Assembly: GCA_027484965.1 (NCBI GenBank)
Contig: JAIXRY010000006.1
Coordinates: forward strand, 130,101 to 194,100
Source of the DNA: a bacterium
Lineage (GTDB): Bacteria > Patescibacteriota > Minisyncoccia > Phycocordibacterales > UBA9973
Length of the DNA stretch: 64,000 nucleotides
Direction: 5' to 3'
The notes below the pieces were generated by a model. The model saw only the letters and a program-made list of their open reading frames with translations, ran no database searches and was not told where the DNA came from. This document shows positions 4,361-34,567 of this stretch, piece by piece; positions within the stretch are counted from its first letter, which is position 1, and the number at the start of each line of letters is the position of its first letter. Both the position numbers and the translations under genes were made by a program.

Positions 4361-4380
4361 AATAAATATATTGTAGCACA

Positions 4381-4410
4381 AAAAATAGCACTTTTTTAGT
4401 GCTATTTTTT
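4381..4410 (-). terminator. hairpin aaaaatagcac-tttttt-agtgctattttt, terminator of the NNNW-repeat gene
   Basis: Inverted repeat plus U-run on minus strand directly after stop at 4422. Confidence 0.55.
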
Positions 4411-8408: not shown

Positions 8409-9206
8409 ATGGAAAATTCAAGAACACAAATAATAGCAACTATTGGTCCAGTATCTAAAAATATATCTACATTAAAAGAAATGATTTCAAACAATATGGA
8501 TATAGCTAGACTAAATTTCTCTTGGGGTACACACAATGATCACAAAGAATCTATAAACAACATAAGAGAGGTTGAAAAAAGTCTAAGCAAGAAAATTCCT
8601 ATAATACAAGATCTTTCTGGACCAAGAATACAAGAAGAAAAAGAACATACTTACAAAAGAGATGTATTAGAAATAATAACTGAAAAAGATTTGTATGATT
8701 TAAAATTTGGAATAGAACAAAATATTGAGTATGTCGCAATGTCTTTCGTTGGGTGTAAAAACGACGTAGAAGAACTTAGAAATCATATAAAAAAATTTGA
8801 AGGAAATCAAAAAATTATTTCAAAAATAGAGAGGCAAGTAGCCTTTGATAACATTGATGAGATAATCGAAGTCTCTGATGGAATAATGATAGCTCGAGGA
8901 GATCTTGGGAATGAAGTACCTTTAGAACAAATACCTTTTATTGAAAAAAGTATTATAGAAAAATGCAATGAAGCTGGTAAACCTGTCATAGTAGCAACTC
9001 AAATGATGCTCTCAATGACTGAAAACACTCTCCCTACACGCGCAGAAGTAACAGACGTATCATTTGCTGTTATAGAAGGGACTGATGCTGTAATGCTATC
9101 TGAAGAGAGTGCTTCAGGAAAACACCCTGTCGAAGCAATAATAATGATGGAAAAAATACTGAAAGAATCAGAAAAACATACTGAAAGAAAAATAATAAAA
9201 CTATAG
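8409..9206 (+). CDS. pyruvate-kinase-like protein, A (TIM-barrel) domain only (265 aa), lacking B lid and C-terminal domains
   Basis: IIATIGPVS...[46 protein letters not shown] retained; only ~20 aa where the ~100-aa B domain should be, and protein ends right after the barrel. Confidence 0.7.
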
Positions 9207-9215
9207 TAGTCAAAA

Positions 9216-9258
9216 TAAAAATCCCCTCTTTTAAATAATAATTGAGGGGATTTTTTAT
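9216..9258. terminator. bidirectional rho-independent terminator (atcccctc...gaggggat + T-run)
   Basis: 8-bp GC-rich stem flanked by A-run and T-run, between convergent genes. Confidence 0.7.
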
Positions 9259-9264
9259 TACTAA

Positions 9265-9381
9265 CTATTTTGCTTTTTTTGCTGCTCTTTGGGCCAACAT
9301 TTCCTTTTTAATCGCAAGACGTTTTGCAGGCTTGTGAGTATTAGTCTTTTTTGGTCCAAGTGAATTTTTTCTTTTTCCCAT
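9265..9381 (-). CDS. small basic protein (38 aa; MGKRKNSLGPKKTNTHKPAKRLAIKKEMLAQRAAKKAK), possibly ribosome-associated
   Basis: Short ORF not in ORF track; very Lys/Arg-rich; followed by terminator. Confidence 0.3.
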   Translation of the reverse strand: MGKRKNSLGPKKTNTHKPAKRLAIKKEMLAQRAAKKAK

Positions 9382-9433
9382 AATATTTTTAGTATATCAC
9401 AAATACCGAGCAAAAGTCCAAATATAAAATATC

Positions 9434-9820
9434 TTATTTAACTATATTTAAATAATCTTTATTATTTAATCTATCAAAAGAAATGTATGAAGCCATAAGT
9501 ATTCCTATAAATACTATTGGCAGGATTACCATAATTCCAAAACCATAAACAACAATAATACTAACCAATGCTCCAATAAAATCTATCATGAATCCTGCAT
9601 ATGCCCATTCTTTTATACGGCGAGGAATTTTAGGAATTATTAACGCAAGACTTCCTAGCACTTTAAATACAGCAAGCATTGTTCCAAAATACACTGGATA
9701 CCCAAGACTTGTTATACCTTGTACAGCCATTTCACTTTGTGAAGTGAAAGCCACCATCACACCCTCAAACAGGAATATTATACCTGTAGTAATCCAAAAA
9801 AGTATTTTATATTTTTTCAT
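9434..9820 (-). CDS. DoxX-family small membrane protein
   Basis: 4 TM helices; start set at MKKYKIL because a TATAAT box and terminator hairpin occupy the longer extension. Confidence 0.55.
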   Translation of the reverse strand: MKKYKILFWITTGIIFLFEGVMVAFTSQSEMAVQGITSLGYPVYFGTMLAVFKVLGSLALIIPKIPRRIKEWAYAGFMIDFIGALVSIIVVYGFGIMVILPIVFIGILMASYISFDRLNNKDYLNIVK

Positions 9821-9848
9821 ATATGAATTATAGCAGCTTAATAAAAAC

Positions 9849-9878
9849 AAAAAAAATACCACATTGTGGTATTTTTTT
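9849..9878 (-). terminator. hairpin ataccacattgtggtat with flanking A/T runs
   Basis: Perfect 7-bp stem; downstream of gene 9893..10303. Confidence 0.5.
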
Positions 9879-9892
9879 ATGTTTAATATAAA

Positions 9893-10303
9893 TTAAATTA
9901 AATCCATATTAACACTTTCACCTGTTGCTGGAGCTTTACAAGATTTTCTTGCTGTTGAAAATTGTTGCCAAGCAGATTGTCTAGCTGTATTGTAAGTCTT
10001 TTTTGCAGAAATAGAAGAATTTCTAAAACTTTGTCCTGCATTTTTTATAGCAGAATTTCTTGCAATTCTATCAGTTAAAACAGAACCAGTAGCCAGATCA
10101 GAAGCTCTCTTTGTAAAAGCAGAACTCATAGAACTAGAGAAATTAGTGAAAGCAGTTTGGATTGCTGTCTCTCTTACTGCAATAGCAGAAGCAACACAAT
10201 TTGTATTATCTGTCTGACTTGTAGTGGTCACATCTTGAGCAAAAGAAATATTAACAAAAGCAAACAAGAATAGTACCGTCGAAGTAATTACATTTTTTAA
10301 CAT
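9893..10303 (-). CDS. secreted hypothetical protein (136 aa)
   Basis: Signal peptide MLKNVITSTVLFLFAFVNISFAQ; Ala/Ser/Thr-rich. Confidence 0.5.
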   Translation of the reverse strand: MLKNVITSTVLFLFAFVNISFAQDVTTTSQTDNTNCVASAIAVRETAIQTAFTNFSSSMSSAFTKRASDLATGSVLTDRIARNSAIKNAGQSFRNSSISAKKTYNTARQSAWQQFSTARKSCKAPATGESVNMDLI

Positions 10304-10392
10304 ATTTTAATATAAAATATTAACTTATAATTATTTAATTATAACACATTTTTGTATTAATATAATTAAAAATAATTTGGTAAAATAAAAAT

Positions 10393-10644
10393 ATGTTGAA
10401 ACAAAAAATCTCAACTGGCACAGTCCACAAAACACCAATAGATGTACAAGATACTCTTATTTCAAAGCCAAAGTTTTTAGAAATTTGGGAAGATATTACC
10501 CCACTTTCACGTAATGAATGGATATGCTGGATTGAATCCGCAAAGAAATTAGAGACGAGAGAACGTAGAATTAAAATAATGCTTGATAAATTCAACAAAG
10601 GCGAACGTCGCCCATGTTGCTGGGCTGGATGTTCTCACAGATAG
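10393..10644 (+). CDS. YdeI/OmpD-associated family protein
   Basis: SRNEWICWIESAKKLETRERRIKIMLDKF matches the OmdA/YdeI C-terminal pattern. Confidence 0.5.
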   Translation: MLKQKISTGTVHKTPIDVQDTLISKPKFLEIWEDITPLSRNEWICWIESAKKLETRERRIKIMLDKFNKGERRPCCWAGCSHR

Positions 10645-10687
10645 CAAAAAACAGATTCAATTGAATCTGTTTTTTATTTTATACTAA

Positions 10688-11200
10688 TTAAGAATTTTTT
10701 GAATCCAAATAGAACTTCCAAAGCTTTTTCATATCACTTCTGGATAGTATTTCTTCTATTTCGCTTTCATTCACCCATTCAAATCGAGCTATTGCGAGTT
10801 CTTCTTCTGATATAGTCTCCTGCTCCAAATCTTCTAATTGAGCAAATACAAGATGATAGTGCGCGAGTCTATTCACTTTTTTAACAACATGATAAAAGAG
10901 TCCATGAGATACACAATCCATTTCTTCAATGTGTTTTACATTTTTAAATCCTGTTTCTTCTAAAATCTCTTTTTGTACTGTTTCTTCTACAGAATCACCT
11001 GTTTCAATACCTCCTGTCAAAAATCCACACCAGCCATTACTCCATTTTGCAATTAGATAAGTATTTTCCGTTGAATGCTTGATGATTACAGCTATAGGAT
11101 CACGCTCAACAATACCTTCTTCTGGTCTAAAGTTATCTGACCCACCACTTTCATTTACATCAACATCTGAATACATTTTCAATATTTCATCTTTTGTCAT
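10688..11200 (-). CDS. NUDIX hydrolase
   Basis: Nudix box GGIETGDSVEETVQKEILEETGF. Confidence 0.8.
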   Translation of the reverse strand: MTKDEILKMYSDVDVNESGGSDNFRPEEGIVERDPIAVIIKHSTENTYLIAKWSNGWCGFLTGGIETGDSVEETVQKEILEETGFKNVKHIEEMDCVSHGLFYHVVKKVNRLAHYHLVFAQLEDLEQETISEEELAIARFEWVNESEIEEILSRSDMKKLWKFYLDSKNS

Positions 11201-11271
11201 ACAAAAATTATAACATAGGTCCCAAAATTATTTTTAATAAAAAAAAATCTACCATTTAGGTAGATTCAAGG

Positions 11272-15319: not shown

Positions 15320-15451
15320 AAGCAAGAATAGCTAGATTAAACTAGCTATTTTTTTATACCAGATTCGAACGCAGACTAGATTTGAGTTTAAATATTAGGA
15401 TTTTTGAGATGTAATAATAAAAGGCTGAATGCGTTTGCAGACAGCCTTTTT

Positions 15452-15760
15452 TCAATTTGTCACCCCCACTTTAACTCCCCCCATAACTAAATCTGTTCTT
15501 CCTATGTTTTCAAATATACCAGCAAGAATTAAATCTATATTCGATAAATATTCTGTACGTAATTTAAAACTTAATAAGTATTGATCTTCTTTTTGTTTTA
15601 TACAGGGGTCAATTTTAATACCTCTACATTGTAAAAAAATAACCTTCAGAGAGTCTATTATTCTTTCTTTTTCTATTTCAGATATAGAATCTTTTACAAT
15701 TTTAGTAATTGGAATCACTACCGAAACAGAGGTATCTAAGTTAATAATTGTCATTTCCAT
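15452..15760 (-). CDS. hypothetical protein (102 aa)
   Basis: ORF; first gene of the repeat-punctuated array. Confidence 0.4.
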   Translation of the reverse strand: MEMTIINLDTSVSVVIPITKIVKDSISEIEKERIIDSLKVIFLQCRGIKIDPCIKQKEDQYLLSFKLRTEYLSNIDLILAGIFENIGRTDLVMGGVKVGVTN

Positions 15761-15789
15761 AATTATTTATATGTTTTATATTTCCCCTC

Positions 15790-15885
15790 ATATTACATTT
15801 TTAAACTTGTAAAGTCAATATGTTCGAACTTCATATAAGGTAACAAAAAATCACTTTACTGATTAAGGTGATTTTTTTAAGACTC
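15790..15885. repeat. intergenic repeat family copy R1 (promoter extension + GTTCGAAC bracket + hairpin AATCACTTTA/TAAGGTGATT)
   Basis: Aligns with copies at 20121, 21629, 23597, 24234. Confidence 0.8.
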
Positions 15886-15916
15886 TTTAGATATCCCTAT
15901 TAGTCACACTTCAAGA

Positions 15917-16387
15917 CTAAGATAGCTTTTCTAAAATTGGAGTATCATCAGTATTAAGAGGTTCTAGATTTTTTTCTTTATGTATCTTTTGGATTAAATC
16001 AAACGCTTCATCTTCTGTTCCAGAAAAATTACTTATTGCTTCTTTAATATAATTAGTTCTGATATCAAATTCTTTTTCTATGTTTTGCAACACGTCAATC
16101 ATTGGTTTATGTTGTATGTTTGCTAATATAATATCTTTTAAGTCCAAACTCCAATTATCAAGATTTCTATGCCCCCAAGGAATTACTCGAAAATTTGTAA
16201 AAGTTTCATCAATTGGACCGTATTTATAAAGAGCTTTTCTGATAGAATCATTATTGTTTACAATTTCAGTAATTTCTTCCAAAAATTGTTTGTTTTTATT
16301 AACAAGATTATTTGAAATAGTAATAGCTTCTTCTCGAAGATTATTAATGTCTTCTTGTCTATTTTGATTAAAATCTATGTTTTCCAT
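15917..16387 (-). CDS. hypothetical protein (156 aa)
   Basis: ORF only. Confidence 0.4.
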   Translation of the reverse strand: MENIDFNQNRQEDINNLREEAITISNNLVNKNKQFLEEITEIVNNNDSIRKALYKYGPIDETFTNFRVIPWGHRNLDNWSLDLKDIILANIQHKPMIDVLQNIEKEFDIRTNYIKEAISNFSGTEDEAFDLIQKIHKEKNLEPLNTDDTPILEKLS

Positions 16388-16548
16388 ACTTTTAATTATA
16401 TCATTTTTATAAAAAATATAAACTCTACTGTGGTAACAAAAAACTTAAATATGTATAAATAAAGAGGTGATAATCGTTTTACATTTTTATACCTATAAAG
16501 TTAGTAGGACATTTAATCTATATAAATAATAGATAGATTAATAAACTT

Positions 16549-17595
16549 GTGTATAATATCCTTATGAATTATAAATTTTTTACAAATTCTGAAAAAACAT
16601 GGGAAGCCATGTTCAAGTCCATCTCTGGAGCACAAAAATCTATATACCTAGAGATGTATATTTTTCAGGGCAATATAGGTAAATACAATTTCTCAAAAAT
16701 CTTGGCGGAAAAATCAAGTGAAGGTCTACAAGTAAAATTAGTTCTGGACTCATTCGGTAGTCTTAGTCTAAATAATCTTGAAATCTCAGAAATGAAAAAA
16801 TCAGGGGTAGAAATATTGTTCACGAGTTATCTAATACATCGTACACATAGGAAAATACTGATTATAGACGAGAAATATGCATTTATGGGTGGGGTGAATA
16901 TTCATAAAAAATCACAATGGTGGAATGATTTGTCCGTCAGGATTCGTGGCAAATTGGTAAAAAATATAGTTGAATCGTTTATAAAATCATACATAAATGC
17001 TGGTGGAAATGACTCTGTATTGATTGAGAAAAAAAGAAAGAATGTTTTAGTAGAAGTGAATGCATGGATAATAGAACACTCCCCAATCAAAAAAATTTTT
17101 AATCTTAAAAAAATATATAAATACCACCTAGGAAAGACAGAGAAGCGTATAGTATTGGTGACCCCATATTTCATGCCGAGACGCTGGATGCAAGCACTCT
17201 TTCACAATGCTGTATTGCGCAATATTGCTGTAGATATATTAATACCTCGAGAAACTGATCATTTTATAATTGATAGGGTTAATTATTTTTACATGTACAA
17301 GATGTCCGAATTAGGTGTCAATTTTTATATGGAGAAAGATATGAATCATGCAAAACTTATGATACTAGATGAAGATGAGTGTATGGTGGGGTCACAGAAT
17401 CTAGATTTCCTTTCTTTTGATTACAATTCGGAAGTAGGAGTATTCTTTAAAGATCAAAAAGTAGCGTCGGTATTGATCGATATTACGGAAAAATGGAAAA
17501 AGGATTCTGTTCTGTTTGATCATAAAAAGCACAAGCCACAGTGGTTTGATTATATCCTTTCTCCATTTATTAAAGTATTCTTTAGAATTTTTTAA
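16549..17595 (+). CDS. phospholipase D-like / cardiolipin synthase-like protein with two HKD motifs
   Basis: HRKILIIDEKYAFMGGVNI and HAKLMILDEDECMVGSQNLD. Confidence 0.75.
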   Translation: MYNILMNYKFFTNSEKTWEAMFKSISGAQKSIYLEMYIFQGNIGKYNFSKILAEKSSEGLQVKLVLDSFGSLSLNNLEISEMKKSGVEILFTSYLIHRTHRKILIIDEKYAFMGGVNIHKKSQWWNDLSVRIRGKLVKNIVESFIKSYINAGGNDSVLIEKKRKNVLVEVNAWIIEHSPIKKIFNLKKIYKYHLGKTEKRIVLVTPYFMPRRWMQALFHNAVLRNIAVDILIPRETDHFIIDRVNYFYMYKMSELGVNFYMEKDMNHAKLMILDEDECMVGSQNLDFLSFDYNSEVGVFFKDQKVASVLIDITEKWKKDSVLFDHKKHKPQWFDYILSPFIKVFFRIF

Positions 17596-17688
17596 GAAAA
17601 TTAAAAATTGTATGTTAATAAAATAACCTTATTTATAAGGTTATTTTATTAACACGAATATGAGAGGATCTTCGATTGAGTATTTTTA

Positions 17689-18282
17689 TTATTTTAGATT
17701 TTTTCCTAGTTTATATACTTCATCTAGAAATTTTTTCCTTTTTTCATCAGTTGAAGATTGAATAGGTCCAAAATGAGAAATCTTAACTGGAGAAATACCA
17801 CAAAATTTCAAAGTTCTATCTTTAAGTTGATTTATACTAGGTGATCCAAAAAAATAATTGTAAATAAAATATGGAGTATCCATCGTAGTTATTATACGAG
17901 CAGTTCTTCCTTTTAAAAGTTTTTCAGGTATTGGAGAACCTTCTTTATATTTAAACGCAAAACCAGCAGAAAAGACCATATCGATAAAACATTTTAAAAT
18001 TGCAGGCATGCTTCCCCACCATACAGGATGAACAAAAATTATATGTTCAGCCCAAGCAATACTATCTCTCGCATCTTTTATTTCTTGCCCAACATCATTA
18101 CCACTATAGTGATCATATCGCAAATAATTTTCTATTGGCATATCAGTTACAACAATCTCTCTTACTTCTGCTCCACCTTCTATTGCACCTTTTTTATAAT
18201 TACTTGCAAGCGCACTACTAAAACTGTTCTTTTTAGGATGTCCATTTATAATTAATATTTTTTTCATAATATTATTATACAC
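17689..18282 (-). CDS. NAD(P)H-dependent FMN oxidoreductase (flavodoxin-like, KefG/YwrO-type)
   Basis: MKKILIINGHPKKNSFSSALA... flavodoxin_2 N-terminus. Confidence 0.65.
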   Translation of the reverse strand: MYNNIMKKILIINGHPKKNSFSSALASNYKKGAIEGGAEVREIVVTDMPIENYLRYDHYSGNDVGQEIKDARDSIAWAEHIIFVHPVWWGSMPAILKCFIDMVFSAGFAFKYKEGSPIPEKLLKGRTARIITTMDTPYFIYNYFFGSPSINQLKDRTLKFCGISPVKISHFGPIQSSTDEKRKKFLDEVYKLGKNLK

Positions 18283-18288
18283 TAAATA

Positions 18289-18345
18289 TATAGGTTCGAA
18301 CTCCTAGAAAGGTAACAAAATATTGCCTTTATTTACAAAGTGATT
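18289..18345. repeat. intergenic repeat family copy R2 (degenerate)
   Basis: ataGGTTCGAACtcctagaAAGGTAACAAAAtatt... shares 5' bracket and GGTAACAAAA core. Confidence 0.55.
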
Positions 18346-18855
18346 TTAATTTAAAACAGCCCTGCTGAATGGTACAGAGAAAGCTTTACACCATACCCAC
18401 ACTTCTTCTACACTTTTGGGGTCGACACCTTGAGGCAATTCATAATTTTGGGAACCAATATTACCTTTCAATTTACCAAGCTCACTCCCCTTCAAGTAAC
18501 TTCCATTTTTACCCAAACCTACATACAGATCAGGCCCATTATTTACATTAAAATCTTCCTCAAAACGAATATAATTCTTACCATTTATACTAACAATTCG
18601 TGCAGTGCCCGAGCCAGTATGCACCCTATCAAAACCAGTAAAATTTCCTTTTTTAATCTCTTCGAATTGATCAGACAGGCTTGATACAACAGCAGATTGT
18701 ACATCTTTATCAACTTGAATATCGGGGACTTGTGCAGCATTTTTAGTAACAGGCAAATCCTCAGAAACTTTTTTATTAATGAAAAATGGAGATATCAGCC
18801 AGTATCCAATTATCAAGACAACAAGGACGCAAATAAAAATTATATTTTTTTTCAT
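18346..18855 (-). CDS. membrane-anchored secreted protein, tentatively DM13-domain-like
   Basis: N-terminal TM; GSGTARIVSINGKNYIRFEEDFNVNNGPDLYVGL resembles DM13 signature (assignment from memory, tentative). Confidence 0.35.
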   Translation of the reverse strand: MKKNIIFICVLVVLIIGYWLISPFFINKKVSEDLPVTKNAAQVPDIQVDKDVQSAVVSSLSDQFEEIKKGNFTGFDRVHTGSGTARIVSINGKNYIRFEEDFNVNNGPDLYVGLGKNGSYLKGSELGKLKGNIGSQNYELPQGVDPKSVEEVWVWCKAFSVPFSRAVLN

Positions 18856-19043
18856 ATATTCTGATTATATCAAATTTAGAATTAAAATCGTTGCACAAAA
18901 GTAAAGCAGTTTACTTGCTCCCTCTAGCGAAAGTGTTCAGCCTGCCCACCTTTGGCAGGAACTCTAAATTGGGTTTCAAATGAGTATTGTTGAGGGAAAA
19001 TAAAAAGCCCTTCACATCATAATGATATGTGGGCTTTCAAAAA

Positions 19044-19646
19044 TCACTTACTCTTCATTACATTTGGAATTTGCGCCAAGAAATCTGGAACCCAAAAATC
19101 ATCAAACCAATACATTATGGCAAATAAAGATCTCTTGATTACATCTTTAGCAGATTCTTGGTCTAATACATTTTTATGATCTGCATCTTCTAAGATGGTA
19201 GCTAAAAGTTCGATTAAATATTGAACTGAATCTGTAAAAGTAGGGACAATACGTTGCCCCATATTTTTTACAGGCACATACGTTACCATTTCATCATCTA
19301 TAGGAATTTTAAATTCAGAAACTTGTTCTTTTGTAATCCCTACAGTGTTTGCAAGTGAAAGAATGTTAACAATCATCTTTAATGTAGCGGTTTTTTGAAT
19401 CAAAGCAAGACTTCCCAACTTTTCATCGGGTTGAGCTATCCATTGCATTTTACGAATACCACTCTTTTCAAAAGGGATATCGTCTTTAATTTTATTAACG
19501 GATTTTAAAATATGAAGCAGTCCGTGTTTTAATGCAAATATTATTTTCTGATCACCTTCTAATCTTCCTATAACAGGATAGTTTTCTTCATTAAAAACAT
19601 ACTTTGAGTTTACGTATTCAAAAGCATCTGTGAGATTTTTTATCAT
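19044..19646 (-). CDS. hypothetical protein (200 aa)
   Basis: ORF only. Confidence 0.4.
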   Translation of the reverse strand: MIKNLTDAFEYVNSKYVFNEENYPVIGRLEGDQKIIFALKHGLLHILKSVNKIKDDIPFEKSGIRKMQWIAQPDEKLGSLALIQKTATLKMIVNILSLANTVGITKEQVSEFKIPIDDEMVTYVPVKNMGQRIVPTFTDSVQYLIELLATILEDADHKNVLDQESAKDVIKRSLFAIMYWFDDFWVPDFLAQIPNVMKSK

Positions 19647-19710
19647 TTTATTTATTTTTAAATTTAGTTAAATACTACACTATTTAATCTAGGTGTCAAC
19701 TTAGATATTT

Positions 19711-19768
19711 AGGTTCGAACTTCATATAAGGTAACAAAAAATCACCCTATTCTGGAGTGATTTTATTA
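19711..19768. repeat. intergenic repeat family copy R3 (5' bracket + hairpin, lacks 3' module)
   Basis: aGGTTCGAACTTCATATAAGGTAACAAAAAATCACcctattctggaGTGATTTT. Confidence 0.75.
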
Positions 19769-19789
19769 AAATTACTTATGAATTTAAGA

Positions 19790-20089
19790 CTAGAGTCTAT
19801 AGTATCCTACAGGCTGTGAATTATCATCTGGCCAATTGACCCCATAACCACGCTCTTTCCACCACGCTTCTGCAATGGGTGTTATATATTTATCCCAACG
19901 GTTAATATGATTTTCTATTTGTTCTCTCTCGTGTGGGCGTAATACCTCCAAAACATCTCTAAACTCAGGTGGACTATTGTCATTTGTCCATTCTATTTTT
20001 AGTTTACCGATATGTGTTTCAAATTCTTTACATAATGATTTAAAAGTTTCTAAATCAGGTTGTTCATTTTCGATATTATTTGTTTCCAT
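19790..20089 (-). CDS. hypothetical protein (99 aa)
   Basis: ORF only. Confidence 0.4.
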   Translation of the reverse strand: METNNIENEQPDLETFKSLCKEFETHIGKLKIEWTNDNSPPEFRDVLEVLRPHEREQIENHINRWDKYITPIAEAWWKERGYGVNWPDDNSQPVGYYRL

Positions 20090-20120
20090 TTTTTAATTAT
20101 TTAATTGTTTAACATTTTTC

Positions 20121-20200
20121 TTTACATTACATTTTTCAACTTGTAAAGTCAATAGGTTCGGACTTCATATAAGGTAGCAAAAAATCACTTATACATTTAA
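20121..20200. repeat. intergenic repeat family copy R4 (promoter extension + 5' half)
   Basis: Near-identical to R1 over acatttttMaacttgtaaagtcaataGGTTCGRACTTCATATAAGGTARCAAAAAATCAC. Confidence 0.8.
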
Positions 20201-20281
20201 GATATCTACATACATTGACAAATCAAATATTATATGATAATATTTTTTTAAATAAACATTCACAATTTAAAAAATCAACTA

Positions 20282-20893
20282 ATGAAAAATTCAACAAAAA
20301 ACAAAGATTCAAAACACGGAATTACTTACGAGCAATTAATGGAATCTAATTTCCTCAAACACCCAACGCACAACGAAGTCGTTCACGCCATTTTCAACCC
20401 AATTATCATTGCCATAATTATTTTAGTAACAACTACAACCTATGTAAAAATTACTGATGGTGACTGGATTTTCAGTCTAATGGTTGGATTCATTACAAGC
20501 ATTTTAATGTCGATTAAACTCGCCATGGCAACAATGATAATTCCTGCTGGACACGGTGTTGGAATTGTTAAAAAAGGCAAACTTTCAGTGCTTGGATTAC
20601 CAAATTCGGCTGTAATAATGTTTAGTATTATTCTTTTATTAATATTAGCACTCAACTACATTACCATTACGTACAATTATTCTTTTGAAACATTTACAAG
20701 AATAAGGATGTTTAGCTTATCTATGTTGTTCGGTTTTATTTTATCAATTTGTTCATGGAGATTTCATACTTACTACAATACATGGTATGGAAGCGAGTAT
20801 GACGCTAGACTGGAATTCAAGAATAAAGGCTATGATGACGAATTGATTGAAAATAAAATTACGAAATTAAAGAAGCAAGGAATCTTGTTTTAA
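20282..20893 (+). CDS. integral membrane protein (203 aa)
   Basis: Multiple hydrophobic helices. Confidence 0.45.
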   Translation: MKNSTKNKDSKHGITYEQLMESNFLKHPTHNEVVHAIFNPIIIAIIILVTTTTYVKITDGDWIFSLMVGFITSILMSIKLAMATMIIPAGHGVGIVKKGKLSVLGLPNSAVIMFSIILLLILALNYITITYNYSFETFTRIRMFSLSMLFGFILSICSWRFHTYYNTWYGSEYDARLEFKNKGYDDELIENKITKLKKQGILF

Positions 20894-20954
20894 CGGAATT
20901 AATCAAGGTTAAGTATTGAGGTACTTTTTATCAAGTGCCTCATTTTTTATTTTA

Positions 20955-21040
20955 GATTCGAACTTGATATAAGGTATCAAAAAATCACCTTACAAATTAA
21001 GGTGATTTTTCTGTTTCTGAACGCGAGAGGATGATCCTGA
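20955..21040. repeat. intergenic repeat family copy R5 (variant 3' module)
   Basis: GATTCGAACTTGATATAAGGTATCAAAAAATCACCTTAcaaaTTAAGGTGATTTTT... Confidence 0.75.
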
Positions 21041-21102
21041 TTTTTTAGACTATAATCAGTCTATTAAATTGCAGTCCCCTTGTGGAGTTTTGTTGAGTAT
21101 AA

Positions 21103-21600
21103 TTATAAGCTATTCAGAAATAATGCAGCCTGTTTTGGTGATTTAAGTCTTATTATTTTATTGTCATACACACCCTCATTTAATAATTTATTCAAAGAAT
21201 AAGATTCACCTTTTGTATAAACAAGTTTTAGAAATTTAAAACTAAATTTTTCAGGACTACCAACAAGTTCTGGTCTTGGTAATTTTCTGTGTTTCCACCA
21301 TCTTTTTATATATCTTATAGCAGAAATAAAACCAGGATAGTCTAAATAAATTAAAGTATCAGCCTCATCAAAAAGTTTTTTCCTAGCATTTTTTGTAATA
21401 TAACCTTCTAATATATATTCATCTCCTGTACTTATTTTTTCGATACTTTTTTGAATCTCTTCATCACCAACATATTTCCAACCAGGTTTCCACATAATTG
21501 AATCAATTAAAGTTAAAGGAATATTTAGTTTTATAGATAACTTTCTAGCAAATGTTGATTTACCTGAAGCGCTTACACCTAGTACTACGATTTTTTTCAT
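21103..21600 (-). CDS. P-loop nucleoside/nucleotide kinase-like protein (adenylate-kinase/topology-modulation FlaR-like)
   Basis: Walker A VVLGVSASGKSTFARKL at N-terminus; 165 aa. Confidence 0.55.
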   Translation of the reverse strand: MKKIVVLGVSASGKSTFARKLSIKLNIPLTLIDSIMWKPGWKYVGDEEIQKSIEKISTGDEYILEGYITKNARKKLFDEADTLIYLDYPGFISAIRYIKRWWKHRKLPRPELVGSPEKFSFKFLKLVYTKGESYSLNKLLNEGVYDNKIIRLKSPKQAALFLNSL

Positions 21601-21628
21601 ATTTTATATTATATATTAAATCTATTTA

Positions 21629-21715
21629 GGTTCGAACTTTATATAAGGTAACAAAAAATCACCTTAGAGATTAAGGTGATTTTGAGGGCTCCGAATGTGG
21701 GAGGAAGTTCGGACG
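21629..21715. repeat. intergenic repeat family copy R6 (full length)
   Basis: GGTTCGAACTTTATATAAGGTAACAAAAAATCACCTTAgagaTTAAGGTGATTTTgagGGCTCCGAAtgtgggaggaagTTCGGAcg. Confidence 0.85.
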
Positions 21716-21719
21716 TCAA

Positions 21720-22277
21720 TTATACAAGAAAAACTTTATATTCATATTCCTTAAGATACACACTTTCTAGATCTAACCCAACGTCTTTGAATACATTTTT
21801 ATATTCTTCTTTATAATGAGGAATAGTCTTAATAGGTAGTATACCTAATCCTTCAAATACATCATTAGCACTGGGGCTAAAAAAATACTTTGCCAATACA
21901 TTCATACCTGCTGATTCACCAGCAACTATCTTACCTGTAAGTAAATCCTTAAACGAAGGAAGTCTTTTTAGTATCTCTAGTATTTTTAGTGTTGTACCAC
22001 CTTGAAAATATATAATGTCTGTAGATTTTATTTGCTCAATAAAAGATCCTTCATTTGCAACCTTAAACTCAAGTTTCTTTTGTCCTCTGTTTTGATTAAA
22101 CTCATTTGTAACTCTTATTGTAGTCGGGACTATTCGTTCAGTATCTTTTGCAAACGGAACGATAAGTATATTAACTTTTTCAGGAGTATCTTTTAAAATT
22201 TCTTTATAAAAATCTGAAAGGTCTTCGTCTTCATTTTTAGGAGTAAATCCTCCATGTAGTATGAATTTTGTTTTCAT
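21720..22277 (-). CDS. peptidase S51 (dipeptidase E/cyanophycinase-like) family protein
   Basis: GGTTLKIL...AGESAGMNVL nucleophile-elbow motif GxSAG. Confidence 0.55.
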   Translation of the reverse strand: MKTKFILHGGFTPKNEDEDLSDFYKEILKDTPEKVNILIVPFAKDTERIVPTTIRVTNEFNQNRGQKKLEFKVANEGSFIEQIKSTDIIYFQGGTTLKILEILKRLPSFKDLLTGKIVAGESAGMNVLAKYFFSPSANDVFEGLGILPIKTIPHYKEEYKNVFKDVGLDLESVYLKEYEYKVFLV

Positions 22278-22295
22278 AGTGTTGATTATATCAAA

Positions 22296-22380
22296 GGTTT
22301 GAACTTCGTATAAGGCATCAAAAAATCACCTTACAGATTAAAGTGATTTTGAGGTCTCCGAACCTGGGATAAGGTTCAAA
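22296..22380. repeat. intergenic repeat family copy R7 (full length, diverged)
   Basis: GGTTTGAACTTCGTATAAGGCATCAAAAAATCACCTTAcagaTTAAAGTGATTTTgagGTCTCCGAACctgggataagGTTCAAAA. Confidence 0.8.
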
Positions 22381-22449
22381 AATAAATTTAGAGAAATAGA
22401 AAAAGCCCTGTTAGGGGCTTTTAAAAAATTAAAGGAGGACTTAATACTA

Positions 22450-22824
22450 CTAGAATCCTTGGTAAGGAATGCGCACAAAGATTGAGCAAGGTTTGTCCAT
22501 TTTTTTTGTTATTGGTATCCGTGATGATGGTCGCTGCTTTGCATACTTTTCTGCTCTAATCATAAATGCCCTGATTCCTTTTTCGTTCTGCACAAAAAAA
22601 AGATTGTTCCCTAAATTCAGAAAAGAAGTAAGTCCTACGTGTCCTTGTTTCTTGAATGCTTTTAGTGTCTCTTTGGGATTTAAAAGTGTGATTTCTCTGA
22701 AGCCCTTTTTCTGAGCATAAGTAAGTATCTCTTTAGGTGTTGTACCAGACTTCGCGGTAAGTAGTTGAAATGATTCCTTAGAGAGAGTAGTAAAGTTTTG
22801 ATGGATTTTTATTTTAGTTGCCAT
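22450..22824 (-). CDS. hypothetical protein (124 aa)
   Basis: ORF only. Confidence 0.4.
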   Translation of the reverse strand: MATKIKIHQNFTTLSKESFQLLTAKSGTTPKEILTYAQKKGFREITLLNPKETLKAFKKQGHVGLTSFLNLGNNLFFVQNEKGIRAFMIRAEKYAKQRPSSRIPITKKMDKPCSIFVRIPYQGF

Positions 22825-22943
22825 GTTATTTATTTAATTGGTTTTCGTAAAAGCCAAAAGCTCCTCTGAAAACCAATCAAATACAATTTAAAAGAACCGT
22901 ATTAAGTGAATAATACAGTTCTTTTAAATTTTGTCAATATATA

Positions 22944-22976
22944 CCCCGAATGTAAGGTGAAGTTCGAATGAGTGTC
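22944..22976. repeat. intergenic repeat family copy R8 (3' module only)
   Basis: CCCCGAATGTaaggtgaaGTTCGAATG matches the CTCCGAAtgtggga..GTTCGRA module. Confidence 0.6.
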
Positions 22977-22988
22977 AAAGAAAATAAA

Positions 22989-23579
22989 CTATAAATTATT
23001 AGCACCTTCTTTCCCTTCAAAAACTATTTCATCAAGGTTTTTTCTTTGACTCGGCTTTTCTCTTTCTTGAAGCTTCTCTGGTAAGTCCTCTATTTTTCCT
23101 GGTTTACCTATTGCGATCATAAGTTCAACCTGATAATCATTTTGAATTTGTAATTCTTTTCTTATTATTTCTTCATTGTATCCACCCATACCATGGACAA
23201 CTAATCCCATGTTAGCACCTTGCAATGCTAAGTTTTCCCATGCTGACCCTGTATCGAGAGAGTGTTTAATGTTAACAGTTCCATCACTTGAAGTTTTCTT
23301 TGAAAGTCCAATTGAAAGAACTCCTGCATTTTTACACCATGTTTGATTACTTTCTAATAAGAATGAAAGGAATAAATCAAAATCAGATGTTCCTTTAATT
23401 GCATAGAGAAATCTCCACGGTTGTTCATTACGAGAAGATGGAGCCCATCTAGCGGCTTCAAACATAGTCATGAGTTCTTCTGTTGAAACACTTTCACCAG
23501 ACATTGCGCGTGGAGAGTAGCGATTTAGAAAAATATCATTGATATCATAGTTAGTCGTTCTATTGTTTATAGTTTTCAT
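22989..23579 (-). CDS. nitroreductase family protein
   Basis: NRYSPRAMSGESVSTEELMTMFEAARWAPSSRNEQPWRF. Confidence 0.75.
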   Translation of the reverse strand: MKTINNRTTNYDINDIFLNRYSPRAMSGESVSTEELMTMFEAARWAPSSRNEQPWRFLYAIKGTSDFDLFLSFLLESNQTWCKNAGVLSIGLSKKTSSDGTVNIKHSLDTGSAWENLALQGANMGLVVHGMGGYNEEIIRKELQIQNDYQVELMIAIGKPGKIEDLPEKLQEREKPSQRKNLDEIVFEGKEGANNL

Positions 23580-23596
23580 ATTAAAATTCTACCATA

Positions 23597-23684
23597 GTTT
23601 CGAACTTGATATAAGGTAACAAAAAATCACCTTATAGGTTAAGGTGATTTTCAGAGCTCCGAATGTGGGACGATGTTCGGAGGG
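23597..23684. repeat. intergenic repeat family copy R9 (full length)
   Basis: GTTTCGAACTTGATATAAGGTAACAAAAAATCACCTTAtaggTTAAGGTGATTTTcagaGCTCCGAAtgtgggacgatgTTCGGAGgg. Confidence 0.85.
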
Positions 23685-23739
23685 AAATAATAAAAGGCTG
23701 AACCATATTGGTCAGCCTTTTAGTTTTAATTTGAAAAAA

Positions 23740-24171
23740 TTATTTTTCATAGAGATAAATTTTATCTGAATGACATACAGTTAAAAATTTTATTTCACTT
23801 GTCATCTTTATTTGAATTTCTTCTCTTGTTATTCCTAATAAATAAGCAGAGTTAGTATTATCTCCTTTTTCAATGTTGTAACTTGAATTCAGTAACACTG
23901 ACATTTCAAGCAATATCAATTCCTCATCAACTTTATTTATATGAAAATATATTCTCGTATCTAACCAGTCTTGTATTAGATATCTCTGACTATCCTTAAG
24001 TTTAGAAGTGGAGTAATCATCTCCATCATACTTTAATTTATATTTTATCTTTCCCTTAAAGTTATCCGATTTTAGTTTTCCCATAGGACTATCTCCAAAC
24101 TTTTTAAAAAGCTCAAGACAAAAAGAAGATAATTTATCAATTTGATCTGCGTTTAAAAATTCTCTTTCCAT
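23740..24171 (-). CDS. hypothetical protein (143 aa)
   Basis: ORF only; own TTGACA-N15/17-TATAAT promoter between gene start and repeat R10. Confidence 0.4.
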   Translation of the reverse strand: MEREFLNADQIDKLSSFCLELFKKFGDSPMGKLKSDNFKGKIKYKLKYDGDDYSTSKLKDSQRYLIQDWLDTRIYFHINKVDEELILLEMSVLLNSSYNIEKGDNTNSAYLLGITREEIQIKMTSEIKFLTVCHSDKIYLYEK

Positions 24172-24233
24172 TTTTTGTATTTGTTTTTCTTTATATTATA
24201 ACAAATATATCTTTTTGTCAATAGGTTCTTATG

Positions 24234-24317
24234 GGTTCGAACTTGATATAAGGTAGCAAAAAATCACCTTACAGATTAAGGTGATTTTTCTGGCTCCGAA
24301 CTTGGGACGATGTTCGA
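24234..24317. repeat. intergenic repeat family copy R10 (full length)
   Basis: GGTTCGAACTTGATATAAGGTAGCAAAAAATCACCTTAcagaTTAAGGTGATTTTTctgGCTCCGAACttgggacgatGTTCGAAtg. Confidence 0.85.
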
Positions 24318-24372
24318 ATGAATATAAAATAAAAAGCCACCAAAAATGGTGGCTTTAAAAGATAAATTCTCT

Positions 24373-24903
24373 TTAACATTCAAACATCTTCATCCATACC
24401 TTACGAAGCAAACAGGCATCGCCAAGAGCATTATGTAGCTCAAACTCAGATAGATCTACCCCTATTTCTTTGTAGAATATGTCGGCCCCTTCAGTATCTG
24501 GAAGAAACAAATATGGATTACGCCCCATACCAAAAAGAATAGATGAGAAATCAACAGTCATCCAGTTAAAGGGGAGTTCATCTTCGGCGAACAATTTATC
24601 CGAATAGATTTTGTCGTAATTATCAACAAATGCTACAGCGAATGGTTTAACAGATCCAATAAATCCTTTTATTATTTTTACAGCTTCTACTCTTGACACT
24701 TTTGGTTCCTTGAGTTTAGGAATGATATGTTGCCTAGTCCAATCATCCACTGGGCCGTCATATTCGAGTTCAAGATAGAGGGATTCGCCACTGACTTTAA
24801 TAGCTCCAAACGAAAGAATTTCGCCTAAGTATGGGTTAAGGCTTGAAAATTCAGTGTCAAAAAACAATAAATTGTCTGACACAAAGCTTTTTAACTTTTG
24901 CAT
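24373..24903 (-). CDS. DEDDh 3'-5' exonuclease (DnaQ/RNase T-like)
   Basis: Exo I-like FFDTEFSSLNPYLGEILSFGA and Exo III-like HNALGDACLLRKVW. Confidence 0.5.
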   Translation of the reverse strand: MQKLKSFVSDNLLFFDTEFSSLNPYLGEILSFGAIKVSGESLYLELEYDGPVDDWTRQHIIPKLKEPKVSRVEAVKIIKGFIGSVKPFAVAFVDNYDKIYSDKLFAEDELPFNWMTVDFSSILFGMGRNPYLFLPDTEGADIFYKEIGVDLSEFELHNALGDACLLRKVWMKMFEC

Positions 24904-24952
24904 TATTTAATTTTTTTTTAAAATTCAATATATAATACTACAAAAAATAAAT

Positions 24953-25894
24953 TTAGTCAATATAGGATATTTTACTAGTATCTATAACAAAATCAGTGTA
25001 TTTTTTTGGGGTTGAAACTGACAATGATTCGGCCAGAAGATGAAATTGTTTGTTTTTTTCCTCAGTATTGAGTCGGTGTATAACTTCTGACAATAAATAC
25101 GAAATATTTTCTTCATATGAACCTAGATCTTTAATTTGTAGTTCATGTGTAGATTGGATAGATAAACCAGACTGGTTTGCATAAAAGGCAACAAACTCTT
25201 CAAATAGTCCTGTCTGATTTAAATAAGTGAAATATTTTAGTGGATCTGACTTTAAACCCTTAAAGATATTTCCTAAAAATAGTTCAACAAAAATCCCTTC
25301 TTTTTGAGCGTTGATAAGATTGAACGTATCCTGAACATGAGATTTATTCTTATGAATGGCAGCTAGAGTACTTTCTTCAATATCAAAGTTTAGCTGGCAA
25401 GCGAACTTCAGAGCTCTAAACATTATGTGAGGTTCTTCTTTGAACTGTGTATTAGGTTCCTTAACGGTCTTTATCAGTTTTTTATCTAAATCGCTTAGAC
25501 CGTTATAAGTATCCAAAATTTTCTCTTTCTTTAAATCGAAGAATACAGCGTTAATAGTAAAGTCGGGAACATTATCATTTAGTGTTGGTACGAGACTCAG
25601 ATCAATCTCAGCATCAGTGATGCTACCCTGTGGTAAAAATCTGTAGACAGTTAAATTCAAATGTTCAATTTGTGTTTTTCCTTCAAGATCAAAGTCTTTA
25701 AACAGCTCTTCAATTTTATATTCTCGCTCATCTCGTGACTTGTTGTACACAATTCGTGCATCAATCTCTTTCCATTCACGGTCAAGATATATATCACGAA
25801 TAGCACCACCAAAAACATAGATATCTATATCTGGCTCTTGTGTAAGTTTTTCTAAAAACGATAGGTTATACTTTTCTTTAAATTTCTCTAACAT
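24953..25894 (-). CDS. nucleotidyltransferase of the CCA-adding/poly(A) polymerase head-domain family (313 aa, shorter than CCA enzymes)
   Basis: IYVFGGAIRDIYLDREWKEIDARIV resembles the GGaVRD...D.D head motif. Confidence 0.45.
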   Translation of the reverse strand: MLEKFKEKYNLSFLEKLTQEPDIDIYVFGGAIRDIYLDREWKEIDARIVYNKSRDEREYKIEELFKDFDLEGKTQIEHLNLTVYRFLPQGSITDAEIDLSLVPTLNDNVPDFTINAVFFDLKKEKILDTYNGLSDLDKKLIKTVKEPNTQFKEEPHIMFRALKFACQLNFDIEESTLAAIHKNKSHVQDTFNLINAQKEGIFVELFLGNIFKGLKSDPLKYFTYLNQTGLFEEFVAFYANQSGLSIQSTHELQIKDLGSYEENISYLLSEVIHRLNTEEKNKQFHLLAESLSVSTPKKYTDFVIDTSKISYID

Positions 25895-25913
25895 TAAGAC
25901 TATTATATCCCAG

Positions 25914-26000
25914 GTTTGAATTTATACTAAGGTATAAAAAATATACCTTAGTATGTAAGACTTTTCTATGATGCTCCGAATGTGGGAGGATGTTCGAAAA
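25914..26000. repeat. intergenic repeat family copy R11 (full length, alternative central hairpin)
   Basis: GGTTTGAATTTATACTAAGGTATAaaaaaTATACCTTAGTatgtaagacttttctatgatGCTCCGAAtgtgggaggatgTTCGAAaag. Confidence 0.75.
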
Positions 26001-26133
26001 GTAATTATTAAAGAATAATAGTCAAAATAAATAAATGCCATTTTAATACAAAACCCAAATATCTAAATATAATGTATATTTTTATATATCTAAAGCAATC
26101 AATTCAAACCTCAGCTTATGTTATAATTATCTA

Positions 26134-26835
26134 ATGACAGCGATAAATATTTATTGTGACGAGAGTAATCATCTTGAAAGTGACAAAAAACCTATGGTCT
26201 TAGGGGCTCTTTATTGCCCTCGAGAAAAAACTAAAATCGTAAATAAAAGAATAAGAGAGATAAAAAAAGAACATGGATTGTCAGAGGATTTTGAAATTAA
26301 ATGGGCAAAAGTTAGTAGTAAAAGGATACCTTTTTATATAGATATTATAAGTTACTTTTTTGATCTCGATTATTTAGGAATAAGAGCTATAGTTGCCGAT
26401 AAAAGCAATCTTAATCACGCTAAATATAATCAAACTCACGATGAGTGGTATTACAAGATATATTATCAACTTTTAACAAAGATTATTCGCTCAGAATCAA
26501 CCTATAAAATTTGTTTAGACAAAAAAGATACTTTAGGGAAAGCTCGTATAGATAAATTAAGAGAATATTTATGTAATACAGAATTTGACTATAAAAAAGA
26601 TATTATTAAAGAAATTAGAGAAGTTCACTCTAGTCAAGTTCAAATGATACAAGTAATTGATCTCATAATAGGAGCTATACAATTTAACTTATGCAACAAG
26701 GGCGAGATTAAAGAAAGTAAGGCAAAAAGACAGATTGTCGAACATCTAAAAAAGAAAAGCGGTCGAACTCTTAGAGTAAATACTCTACCTTCCGAGTTTA
26801 AATTAAATTTATTTTTTTGGAATGCTCATGAATAA
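26134..26835 (+). CDS. DUF3800-family protein
   Basis: N-terminal INIYCDESNH resembles the YIDESG signature of DUF3800. Confidence 0.45.
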   Translation: MTAINIYCDESNHLESDKKPMVLGALYCPREKTKIVNKRIREIKKEHGLSEDFEIKWAKVSSKRIPFYIDIISYFFDLDYLGIRAIVADKSNLNHAKYNQTHDEWYYKIYYQLLTKIIRSESTYKICLDKKDTLGKARIDKLREYLCNTEFDYKKDIIKEIREVHSSQVQMIQVIDLIIGAIQFNLCNKGEIKESKAKRQIVEHLKKKSGRTLRVNTLPSEFKLNLFFWNAHE

Positions 26836-33318: not shown

Positions 33319-33921
33319 TTAGACAACTTGTAAAAGTGTAGAGAATACGAAATGCATTCTATGGTTTTGAAACATGAAATTTGGATACATAAGCAACTCA
33401 AGAGCCATAATATATTCTTTGTTATAACCTATAAGATCGGCTATTTTATCTAAAAAACGTGCACCAACCGCATTGTTACCAATATTCAAAGGTTTGAACA
33501 TTAAACTATATATAGGATATGAGAGATAATCTTCGTATAGTTCATCAAATAACTCTTCTGCATTTAGAGAATATTTTTCTGTTGCATAAGATAATATATT
33601 TGATTTTAAGAATATATATTGTTCGTTTGTTAGATATTTATCTATTACAACACTTCTAAGTCTCTCTAAAATACATAAATTGGATACAAAAGTATATAAC
33701 TCAACTTTATTCCTTAATTCCCTATTATCTTCTTTAACATAGTGATAGAAAAGCTGATTTGTAAAGTCTAAAGACATACACGAAAGAATACCTGAAATAA
33801 TATTACTCTTTTCAATTAGAGCAGATTCAGAATTGTTTGAACCTTTAAGCTTTGAAATACCCTCTTCTATGTAGTACATTCTAAAACTATCTTTAATAGA
33901 CATTGATTTTTCTTTAGACAT
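33319..33921 (-). CDS. hypothetical protein (200 aa), third gene of a three-gene operon
   Basis: 4-nt gap to upstream gene. Confidence 0.45.
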   Translation of the reverse strand: MSKEKSMSIKDSFRMYYIEEGISKLKGSNNSESALIEKSNIISGILSCMSLDFTNQLFYHYVKEDNRELRNKVELYTFVSNLCILERLRSVVIDKYLTNEQYIFLKSNILSYATEKYSLNAEELFDELYEDYLSYPIYSLMFKPLNIGNNAVGARFLDKIADLIGYNKEYIMALELLMYPNFMFQNHRMHFVFSTLLQVV

Positions 33922-33924
33922 ATA

Positions 33925-34536: not shown

Positions 34537-34567
34537 ATTTGTATTCTTAGCTAATGTTATTAATTAT

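Follow-up and report, generated by a model that had tools for sequence, protein, structure and literature searches.

The closest described relatives of the locus reported here are integrons and the clusters of attC sites lacking integron integrases (CALINs), in which small, unrelated and co-oriented genes are each followed by an imperfect-palindrome site that travels with the open reading frame (ORF) upstream of it. The pdif modules of Acinetobacter, which depend on Xer, are bounded by dif-like sites of alternating orientation and are plasmid-borne. Among short intergenic repeats, the repetitive extragenic palindromes and bacterial interspersed mosaic elements (REP/BIME) and the Correia elements of Neisseria are dispersed genome-wide in both orientations, and miniature inverted-repeat transposable elements (MITEs) are flanked by target duplications. 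Within attC, the AAC and GTT triplets are the best conserved positions, and half of the CALINs lie in genomes without the integrase IntI (Cury et al. 2016, PMC4889954). The DUF1874 motif, a conserved structure that recurs in successive intergenic regions of arrays whose ends lack an integrase, was suspected by its authors to be an attC-like site of an unusual kind, in single-stranded DNA (Weinberg et al. 2017, PMC5737381). Here we describe an array of this general kind in the chromosome of a Candidatus Paceibacterota bacterium, a member of the candidate phyla radiation (CPR). In the 64-kb stretch that we analysed (the window; contig JAIXRY010000006.1 of assembly GCA_027484965.1, positions 130,101 to 194,100), 11 copies of a modular repeat of about 100 nt and three decayed remnants lie between 15.36 and 26.01 kb, in a single orientation and 3' of small genes. 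We read it, with a probability of about 0.5, as a cassette array with non-canonical attC-like sites, recombined site-specifically by an unlinked enzyme.

The repeats are clustered and confined to the array. A repeat-family search returned a 102-nt family with six copies (at 15819, 20953, 21627, 22294, 23595 and 24232) and sub-families of 44-49 nt with nine copies between 15.8 and 26.0 kb. Searching the window by nhmmer with a profile of the full copies gave 12 matches, all on the minus strand within 15.8-26.0 kb, and none elsewhere. Separate profiles of the two halves of the element gave 5 and 9 matches that were equally confined; all 14 of these module matches fall within 10.2 kb, share one orientation and lie 3' of a gene. 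Pattern searches with core motifs found 7, 4 and 9 copies in the array interval, against 0-0.8 expected by chance. The 11 copies counted in an earlier note on this DNA, made from the letters alone, comprise six full copies, R11 and four partial ones, to which we add the decayed remnants at 17620-17677, 16417-16443 and 15362-15445. That note's description of repeats delimiting small, mostly minus-strand genes of unrelated function was borne out by the profile search, which showed the copies to be co-oriented, and by Pfam.

Read in gene direction, the element consists of a 5' module nnCGAAC-N11-TTCGGAGC, a variable hairpin with compensatory changes and a 3' module TTTTTTGnTACCTTATATnAAGTTCGAACC. 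In full copies the 5' module reads (C)ATTCGAAC-ATCnTCCCACA-TTCGGAGC on the minus strand. About 3 nt past it stands a stem-loop, most commonly AAAAATCACCTTA / TAAGGTGATTTTT, with an A run on one side and a T run on the other; the 3' module is TTG-nTACCTTATATnAA-GTTCGAAC-C. TTCGAAC, the first box, is the exact inverse of GTTCGAA, the last, so that the whole is bounded by terminal inverted repeats of 7-14 bp, TAGnnTTCGAAC...GTTCGAACCTA, around an internal hairpin. Across 30 copies, from genomes with unrelated cassette ORFs, the geometry CGAAC-N11-TTCGGAGC is kept without gaps; box A is nnCGAAC, in which GAAC is nearly invariant, and box C is GTTCGAAC. Single-strand folding predicts the central hairpin in every case (z-scores -2.3 to -5.7). 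At least seven different hairpin sequences stand between the constant flanks, with pairing kept by different sequences (four pairs with compensatory changes, 90% of cells paired). Complementarity of the end boxes extends over 7 nt; 77% of their cells are paired, and one compensatory change stands against three uncompensated ones. Folding adds a 10-bp outer stem between the end boxes in R6 and a perfect local hairpin, CTCCGAA/TTCGGAG, in R9; covariation fits the outer stem and the local hairpin of the 5' module equally well. The inverted ends, the A and T runs, the R9 hairpin and the different central hairpin of R11 (13 bp) had all been described in the earlier note, which took the element for one unit. 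It is instead modular: the 5' module, the variable hairpin, the 3' module and an optional promoter or leader each occur alone as well. The hairpin and 3' module stand by themselves in R1-R4, and the 5' module in R8 and in the 17.6-kb remnant. The 5' module is also found between convergent genes, with no downstream promoter to use it, both in the window (17620-17677) and in a related array (L015, 6832-6867). The array and its elements, all on the minus strand, are as follows.

15362..26012, minus strand: the complete array, with about 15 genes that are read toward pyruvate kinase and are punctuated by 14 copies or remnants of the element
25906..26012, minus strand: R11, the head element; its 5' module TTCGAACATCCTCCCACATTCGGAGC is perfect, its hairpin CTAAGGTATA/TATACCTTAG is a different one and its end box ATTCAAAC is degenerate; it has no gene upstream, and a DUF3800 gene diverges from it
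24227..24335, minus strand: R10, full element, followed by TTGACA-17-TAATAT (24221-24193)
23589..23697, minus strand: R9, full element, after the cassette's own terminator GGCTGA..TCAGCCTTTTATTATT
22825..22988, minus strand: R8, the 5' module alone (22944-22977), joined to TTGACA-16-TATTAT and a leader of about 110 nt with two hairpins
22289..22394, minus strand: R7, full element, in which box A (TTTGAAC) and box C (GTTCAAAC) have changed together, the sole compensatory change seen between the two end boxes
21625..21728, minus strand: R6, full element, whose single-strand fold is predicted to include the 10-bp outer stem of boxes A and C
20949..21052, minus strand: R5, full element with a degenerate 5' module, an equally degenerate copy of which follows the orthologous kinase cassette in the related array L031
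20151..20192, minus strand: R4, half of the hairpin and the 3' module, then TTGACT-17-TAATGT and a 5' untranslated region (5'UTR) in common with R1
19709..19764, minus strand: R3, hairpin and 3' module, then TTGACA-16-TAGTAT
18290..18348, minus strand: R2, diverged hairpin and 3' module
17620..17677, minus strand: decayed 5' module and hairpin, between a flavodoxin-like gene and a convergent PLD gene
16417..16443, minus strand: decayed 3' module TTTTTTGTTACCacagtaGAGTTtata, read from the sequence
15818..15920, minus strand: R1, hairpin and 3' module with no recognisable 5' module, then TTGACT-17-TAATAT
15362..15445, minus strand: tail remnant, a terminator GGCTG..CAGCCTTTTATTATT and a lone box GTTCGAATC

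The evidence that carries the cassette reading comes from relatives. One array, L031 (the outward extension of locus L003), occupies the same chromosomal place as that of the window: the segment with pyruvate kinase, DoxX and OmdA/NUDIX is 86, 84 and 83% identical in nucleotides to window positions 8875-11216, and in both genomes the array genes run toward pyruvate kinase. Of the roughly 15 array genes in the window and 18 in L031, a single one is common to both, the P-loop kinase cassette (window 20952-21691, L031 3751-3016; 88% nucleotide and 94% amino acid identity), and its neighbours differ on both sides. The similarity starts in the hairpin of the element upstream, continues through promoter and ORF and takes in the downstream element, whose 5' module is equally degenerate in both genomes; it stops immediately after GTTCGAAyCTAA, that is, past the GTTCGAAC box. 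This end of homology suggests that an element goes with the ORF preceding it and that the cassette boundary lies at the last box, as with the R' box of attC. The same repeat at the same chromosomal spot, with almost entirely different genes, gives the locus the look of integron-style gene swapping; the comparison of gene order with relatives, which the earlier note had proposed, came out in favour of cassette logic.

In the GTDB species genomes, a pattern of 19 bases over 20 positions (one N) gave two real matches, both in Candidatus Paceibacterota metagenome-assembled genomes (L003 and L005); the other three (L001, L002 and L004) were chance matches. A metagenome scan added L007, from a sample in common with L005. 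Walking outward from a DUF1428 cassette common to these arrays led to two more, L015 (from GCA_031413715.1) and L018-L020, the latter carrying 5' modules only. Together, modules punctuate small-gene arrays in five Paceibacterota loci besides the window (L031/L003, L005, L007, L015 and L018), where they are always co-oriented with the genes and confined to spans of at most 10 kb. Six other Paceibacteria-type loci of 15-20 kb held no modules, distant homologues of the kinase cassette lay in ordinary housekeeping contexts without modules, and the viral collections gave one chance match in a coding region and otherwise none. The genome and metagenome scans, with 2 + 2 real loci between them, need exact matches and so give too low a picture of the distribution. 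L005 and L007 have one flank and one cassette in common (94-96% identity), differ in their other cassettes and may be strain variants of one locus; around their DUF1428 ORF, unrelated sequence begins immediately outside the start and stop codons. In the same pair, from one metagenome and otherwise 87-96% identical, a TerC gene is present in one contig (L005 6592-7512, against L007 4803-4827) and is replaced in the other, exactly from start to stop codon, by a terminator hairpin.

The gene-cassette-array reading is thus supported by comparative evidence. It draws on the repeats themselves, their modularity, clustering and orientation, their conservation in six loci, the covariation of the hairpin, the different cargo at the same locus and one homology breakpoint. 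Under it, this chromosomal CPR array would work like an integron array. Each cassette would be a small, self-contained expression unit, often with its own promoter, with one ORF (rarely two) and often its own terminator, and would end in a recombination element of about 100 nt that travels with the upstream ORF. That element would be made of the 5' module of fixed geometry, the variable stem-loop, which also resembles a two-way terminator, and the 3' module, closed by GTTCGAAC as the inverse of the first box, and the cassette boundary would be set at this final box. A recombinase encoded elsewhere would excise and insert cassettes at the boxes, and decay of the sites would leave the solo halves. 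The action of a site-specific recombinase on the boxes, the strand or form of DNA used and the identity of the enzyme are what we infer here.

A number of observations do not sit well with this proposal. Among the ~60 window ORFs of at least 100 aa there was no match to Phage_integrase (PF00589), in a search made without six-frame screening for pseudogenes, and the gene lists around arrays L005, L015, L018 and L031 contain no tyrosine recombinase or integrase. Solo halves of the element are common, and covariation outside the central hairpin comes down to single events. Inner boxes have a single candidate, GGAGC with GYT-A-CC, which is 85% paired, with one base bulged and one compensatory change; its distances to the R-like boxes are 14 and 9 nt, where attC has 5-6 nt. 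The DUF1428 cassette of L005, also present in L007, has no element past its stop codon. No excision product, circular junction, empty site or polymorphism was seen, and Logan contigs from this strain match the window at 100% identity and break inside the repeats. Finally, the promoter and 5'UTR after box C, and the promoter and structured leader after solo 5' modules, are common to unrelated ORFs. Such blocks, shared up to the ATG, are not predicted by a single fixed crossover point, and a mosaic of standard parts arises more easily by homologous exchange among repeats, which keeps alive an explanation by insulators or homology arms.

Compared with integrons, the locus shows the co-oriented small unrelated genes, the site lying 3' of the ORFs and travelling with them, cargo that varies between relatives, inverted boxes A and C resembling R'' and R' with the AAC...GTT triplets, and a variable, covarying centre between conserved ends; with CALINs it also shares the lack of a nearby integrase. 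We therefore considered whether the array is a genuine, divergent CALIN, whose true attC sites fold from one strand and whose IntI lies elsewhere in the genome or has been lost, as the IntI-less CALIN genomes and triplet conservation described by Cury et al. (2016) would allow. However, the canonical RYYYAAC/GTTRRRY is absent, as the earlier note had stated without remarking that the attC triplets are kept: TTCGAAC departs from it at positions 1 and 4, and GTTCGAA at positions 4 and 7. There is no L''/L' box with extrahelical bases 5-6 nt inside the R box, nor a short unpaired spacer, and in contrast to integrons the elements have one more conserved box, TTCGGAGC, and a 5' module fixed at 26 nt. 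Promoter and terminator come with most cassettes, the host belongs to the CPR, intI is missing from the sequence seen at all six arrays, and no intI (which encodes a tyrosine recombinase with an insertion specific to IntI) was found beside a first cassette with an attI. Rfam returned nothing on the elements, either at the gathering threshold or at E <= 5, a search in which the presence of models for Transposase-resistance (class 1 attC) and DUF1874 was unconfirmed, and full-text literature searches gave no report of integrons or cassette arrays in Patescibacteria/CPR. Because of the non-canonical boxes, the spacing of the candidate L boxes, the weak outer covariation and the competing local hairpin, we do not file the sites as attC, and a true integron remnant appears improbable to us. 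Conceptually, the DUF1874 motif sets a precedent, as a suspected attC-like motif that recurs from one intergenic region to the next without an integrase, although the sequence and structure of the window's elements differ from it. The least probable explanation is a selfish MITE- or REP-like repeat that prefers sites downstream of genes and clusters only because the region is permissive. It would fit the length of ~100 nt, the terminal inverted repeats, the internal hairpin and, as in REP/BIME, the intergenic palindromes with possible terminator and promoter activity, and the earlier note had entertained it. Yet all full copies have different flanks on both sides and no target-site duplication, and ~90 kb of non-array sequence at the array-bearing loci contains zero copies, against ~47 module matches (E < 0.01) in ~45 kb of arrays; the absence of duplications and of dispersal argues against MITE models and, as far as the sequence covered goes, against REP models. 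Unlike such repeats, all copies here lie within an array and are co-oriented with the genes, and their halves occur independently; no transposase with matching ends was seen. Where REP/BIME would have many dispersed copies and an associated RAYT transposase, the window has neither copies in the 53 kb outside the array nor a Y1 transposase.

Cassette exchange could also proceed on a platform specific to CPR that is not an integron, a tentative alternative that we hold to be possible. The 26-nt 5' module would then be a double-stranded core site for an unlinked recombinase other than IntI, or else portable homology for uptake-driven exchange, and standard modules (promoter/leader, terminator) would receive the ORFs at one fixed hotspot of the chromosome. 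The 5' module can be read as an imperfect 10-6-10 palindrome, ATTCGAACAT-CCTCCC-ACATTCGGAG, with the asymmetric centre CCTCCC; an arm-spacer-arm layout of this kind is typical of tyrosine recombinase core sites, and the likeness is one of resemblance only. The pdif modules are similar in their small tandem gene modules, short bounding sites and lack of a dedicated recombinase gene nearby, and share such a layout, but the array here is chromosomal and all its sites have one orientation. The dif site itself is 28 bp long (11-6-11) with a conserved XerD arm, TTATGTnAA (TTATGT(T/A)AA); neither the 3' module, GGTTCGAACTT-GATATA-AGGTAACAAAA, nor the 5' module has this arm in a by-eye comparison with the consensus, and an identity with dif/Xer was rejected. 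Somewhat less probable in our view, and still the main rival to the cassette array with attC-like sites, is that the repeats are standardised regulatory or insulator modules, made of terminator, spacer and promoter/leader parts, with no dedicated recombinase. These parts would spread and homogenise by homologous recombination and gene conversion in a hypervariable locus, and the sequence that they share would act as portable homology by which RecA could exchange cassettes, for instance following DNA uptake. Such modules would account for the hairpin between its A and T runs, the best promoter matches following many copies, the whole intergenic blocks common to unrelated ORFs, the several mosaic combinations of modules, the identical runs of at least 30 nt across many copies and the lack of a recombinase near any array. 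They account poorly for the 5' module, the most conserved part, which is neither terminator nor promoter and often lies past a complete terminator as well as between convergent genes. Moreover, other genes of the window use promoters and terminators without modules, and strict orientation together with a sharp end of homology at box C is unexpected from scattered homologous crossovers. We judge such modules without a dedicated recombinase rather unlikely.

Within the window, a PHROG scan of the unannotated ORFs likewise revealed no tyrosine recombinase, and the earlier statement that no intI is present was confirmed for its ~60 ORFs, the head-divergent position being occupied by DUF3800. The same note had suggested a link to the serine recombinases downstream. 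The window contains three complete large serine recombinase genes (37577-39370, 50443-52026 and 58546-60117) and a fragment (46945-48604), which start at least 11.5 kb from the array, in an island-rich stretch ending at tRNA-Asn. No serine recombinase was present in the sequence fetched for loci L005, L015, L018 and L031, and a further locus, L028, has a serine recombinase beside small genes and no modules. The suggested link was therefore dropped, and with it a likeness to large-serine-recombinase accretion of the SCC kind, for which recombinases would have to co-occur with the arrays.

The recombinase genes have features of their own. ORF 37577-39370 contains, in the 3' part of its coding sequence, GGTTCGAACC (39074-39084, plus strand) and, 102 nt further on, AAGTTCGAACCTAAAT (39176-39191, plus strand), a 16-nt exact match to the end of R3 and R6. 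The L028 recombinase, 31% identical, has two AAGTTCGAACC motifs (2427-2444 and 2519-2536), 92 nt apart. A connection of the enzymes with the arrays through these motifs was rejected: frames and order differ, and there is no co-occurrence. The 3' end of ORF 58546-60117 (plus strand) overlaps tRNA-Asn (60105-60177, minus strand), and the related L028 gene ends at a putative tRNA-Ser gene (recognised by eye only); judged by sequence, these elements appear to target tRNA 3' ends. In L028, inverted repeats of 205 nt (3911-4115 and 8113-8317, 99% complementary) enclose a 4-kb block of small genes (glyoxalases, DUF1428) adjoining the recombinase, most of whose gene is bracketed by a second, perfect inverted repeat of 120 nt; the block could be an invertible segment or an assembly artefact. 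The window also has two LOOT RNA motifs (RF03000; 91 and 76 bits) in inverted orientation (35438-35560, minus strand, and 43085-43209, plus strand), each upstream of an unannotated ORF: the first precedes three ORFs of ~200 aa (33319-35173), the second one of 402 aa. Between the two lie 7.5 kb with genes for a KAP NTPase, a large serine recombinase and, on a weak sub-threshold match, a HEPN/AbiU2-like protein.

As for expression, the proposal that each unit ends one gene and starts the next holds in part. Hairpins and promoters are there, and many element copies are followed by a good -35/-10 match, but many cassettes have their own terminator before the element, of the recurring type GGCTGnnCA..TGnnCAGCCTTTTATTATT, and several elements have no recognisable promoter after them. 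A promoter scan recovered the TTGACT-17-TAATAT reported after R1; after R10 it read TTGACA-17-TAATAT in place of TTGACA-15-TATAAT. R4 is followed by TTGACT-17-TAATGT, with TAATGT rather than TAATAT. The best-scoring matches sit just upstream of genes, although promoter-like sites as a class are not enriched in the AT-rich array region (59 found, 57.8 expected). Two promoter blocks recur past the element: TTGACTTTACAAGTT..AAAATGTAATGT with its 5'UTR, and TTGACA-16-TATTAT with the two-hairpin leader. The latter, TTGACA..TATTAT..GAACTGTATTATTCAnTnAATACAGTTC..TTGATTGGTTTTC..GAAAACCAATTAAA, precedes five unrelated small genes in four genomes, shows some compensatory changes in its hairpins and may be an undescribed cis-regulatory leader. 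Its positions are:

22825-22945, minus strand, in the window
478-605 and 4610-4725 in L003
4302-4423 in L005
6338-6462 in L007

Between 15300 and 26200 of the window we saw no Shine-Dalgarno-like sequence before start codons; the spacers are A/T-rich, often with less than 30 nt from the -10 box, and the only GGAGG-like strings belong to the antisense strand of 5' modules.

Pfam agreed with the earlier note on a functionally unrelated cargo, confirming PLD, a flavodoxin-like NAD(P)H oxidoreductase, DM13, peptidase S51, nitroreductase and a PolyA_pol-type nucleotidyltransferase. Two assignments were less firm: the P-loop kinase has only sub-threshold matches to AAA_18/AAA_17, and the exonuclease a weak RNase_T-like match below the cut-off. 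The genes and the locus anchor are as follows.

24953..25894, minus strand: PolyA_pol-type nucleotidyltransferase, 313 aa (Pfam)
24373..24903: RNase_T-like exonuclease, weak Pfam match, in one cassette with the nucleotidyltransferase
22989..23579, minus strand: nitroreductase, 196 aa (Pfam)
21720..22277, minus strand: peptidase S51-like, 185 aa (Pfam)
21103..21600, minus strand: P-loop kinase, 165 aa, the sole cassette in common with the syntenic L031 array (94% aa)
17689..18282, minus strand: flavodoxin-like NAD(P)H oxidoreductase (Pfam), with DM13 (18346-18855) and PLD (16549-17595, plus strand) as neighbours
8409..11216: conserved locus anchor of pyruvate kinase barrel, DoxX and NUDIX, 83-86% identical to L031

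The window has two pyruvate kinase genes, one full-length (474 aa, 2957-4381, minus strand) and one of the barrel only (265 aa, 8409-9206, plus strand); the short copy is the conserved anchor beside the array in the window and in L031. At the other end, the DUF3800 gene (26134-26835, plus strand) diverges from the array head, the place of intI in integrons, and the 120-nt gap before it contains GGTTTGAAT (26093-26101), the inverse of the R11 end box. None of the other arrays has a DUF3800 gene. Genes of this family associate with diverse structured RNAs (PMC5737381).

A tRNA gene also adjoins one of the related arrays: in L018 (9690-9824, minus strand) a tRNA-Asn gene ends 20 nt before the array starts. 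An alignment of the 5' module with the 3' end of this gene, from T-loop to acceptor, scores better than 99.4% of shuffles (p ~0.005), and on this similarity the site may have arisen from a tRNA-Asn 3' end. The tRNA-Asn of the window itself gives no such alignment. A tRNA-fragment origin within the window was rejected, as a search there for repeats of the tRNA-Asn 3' end found none and the L018 alignment is marginal.

CPR bacteria (Patescibacteria) have tiny genomes with few recognised mobile elements, and to our knowledge it is largely unclear how they gain and lose accessory genes. The locus offers a concrete, sequence-defined system for this: a fixed hotspot beside pyruvate kinase at which genomes of ~85% identity carry almost entirely different small genes, set between conserved sites. 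If the exchange is site-specific, integron-style gene capture would extend to a new phylum and to a new kind of site, pointing to an as yet unidentified recombinase. If no dedicated enzyme is involved, the arrays would be a clear natural example of standardised expression modules serving as homology arms for gene exchange.

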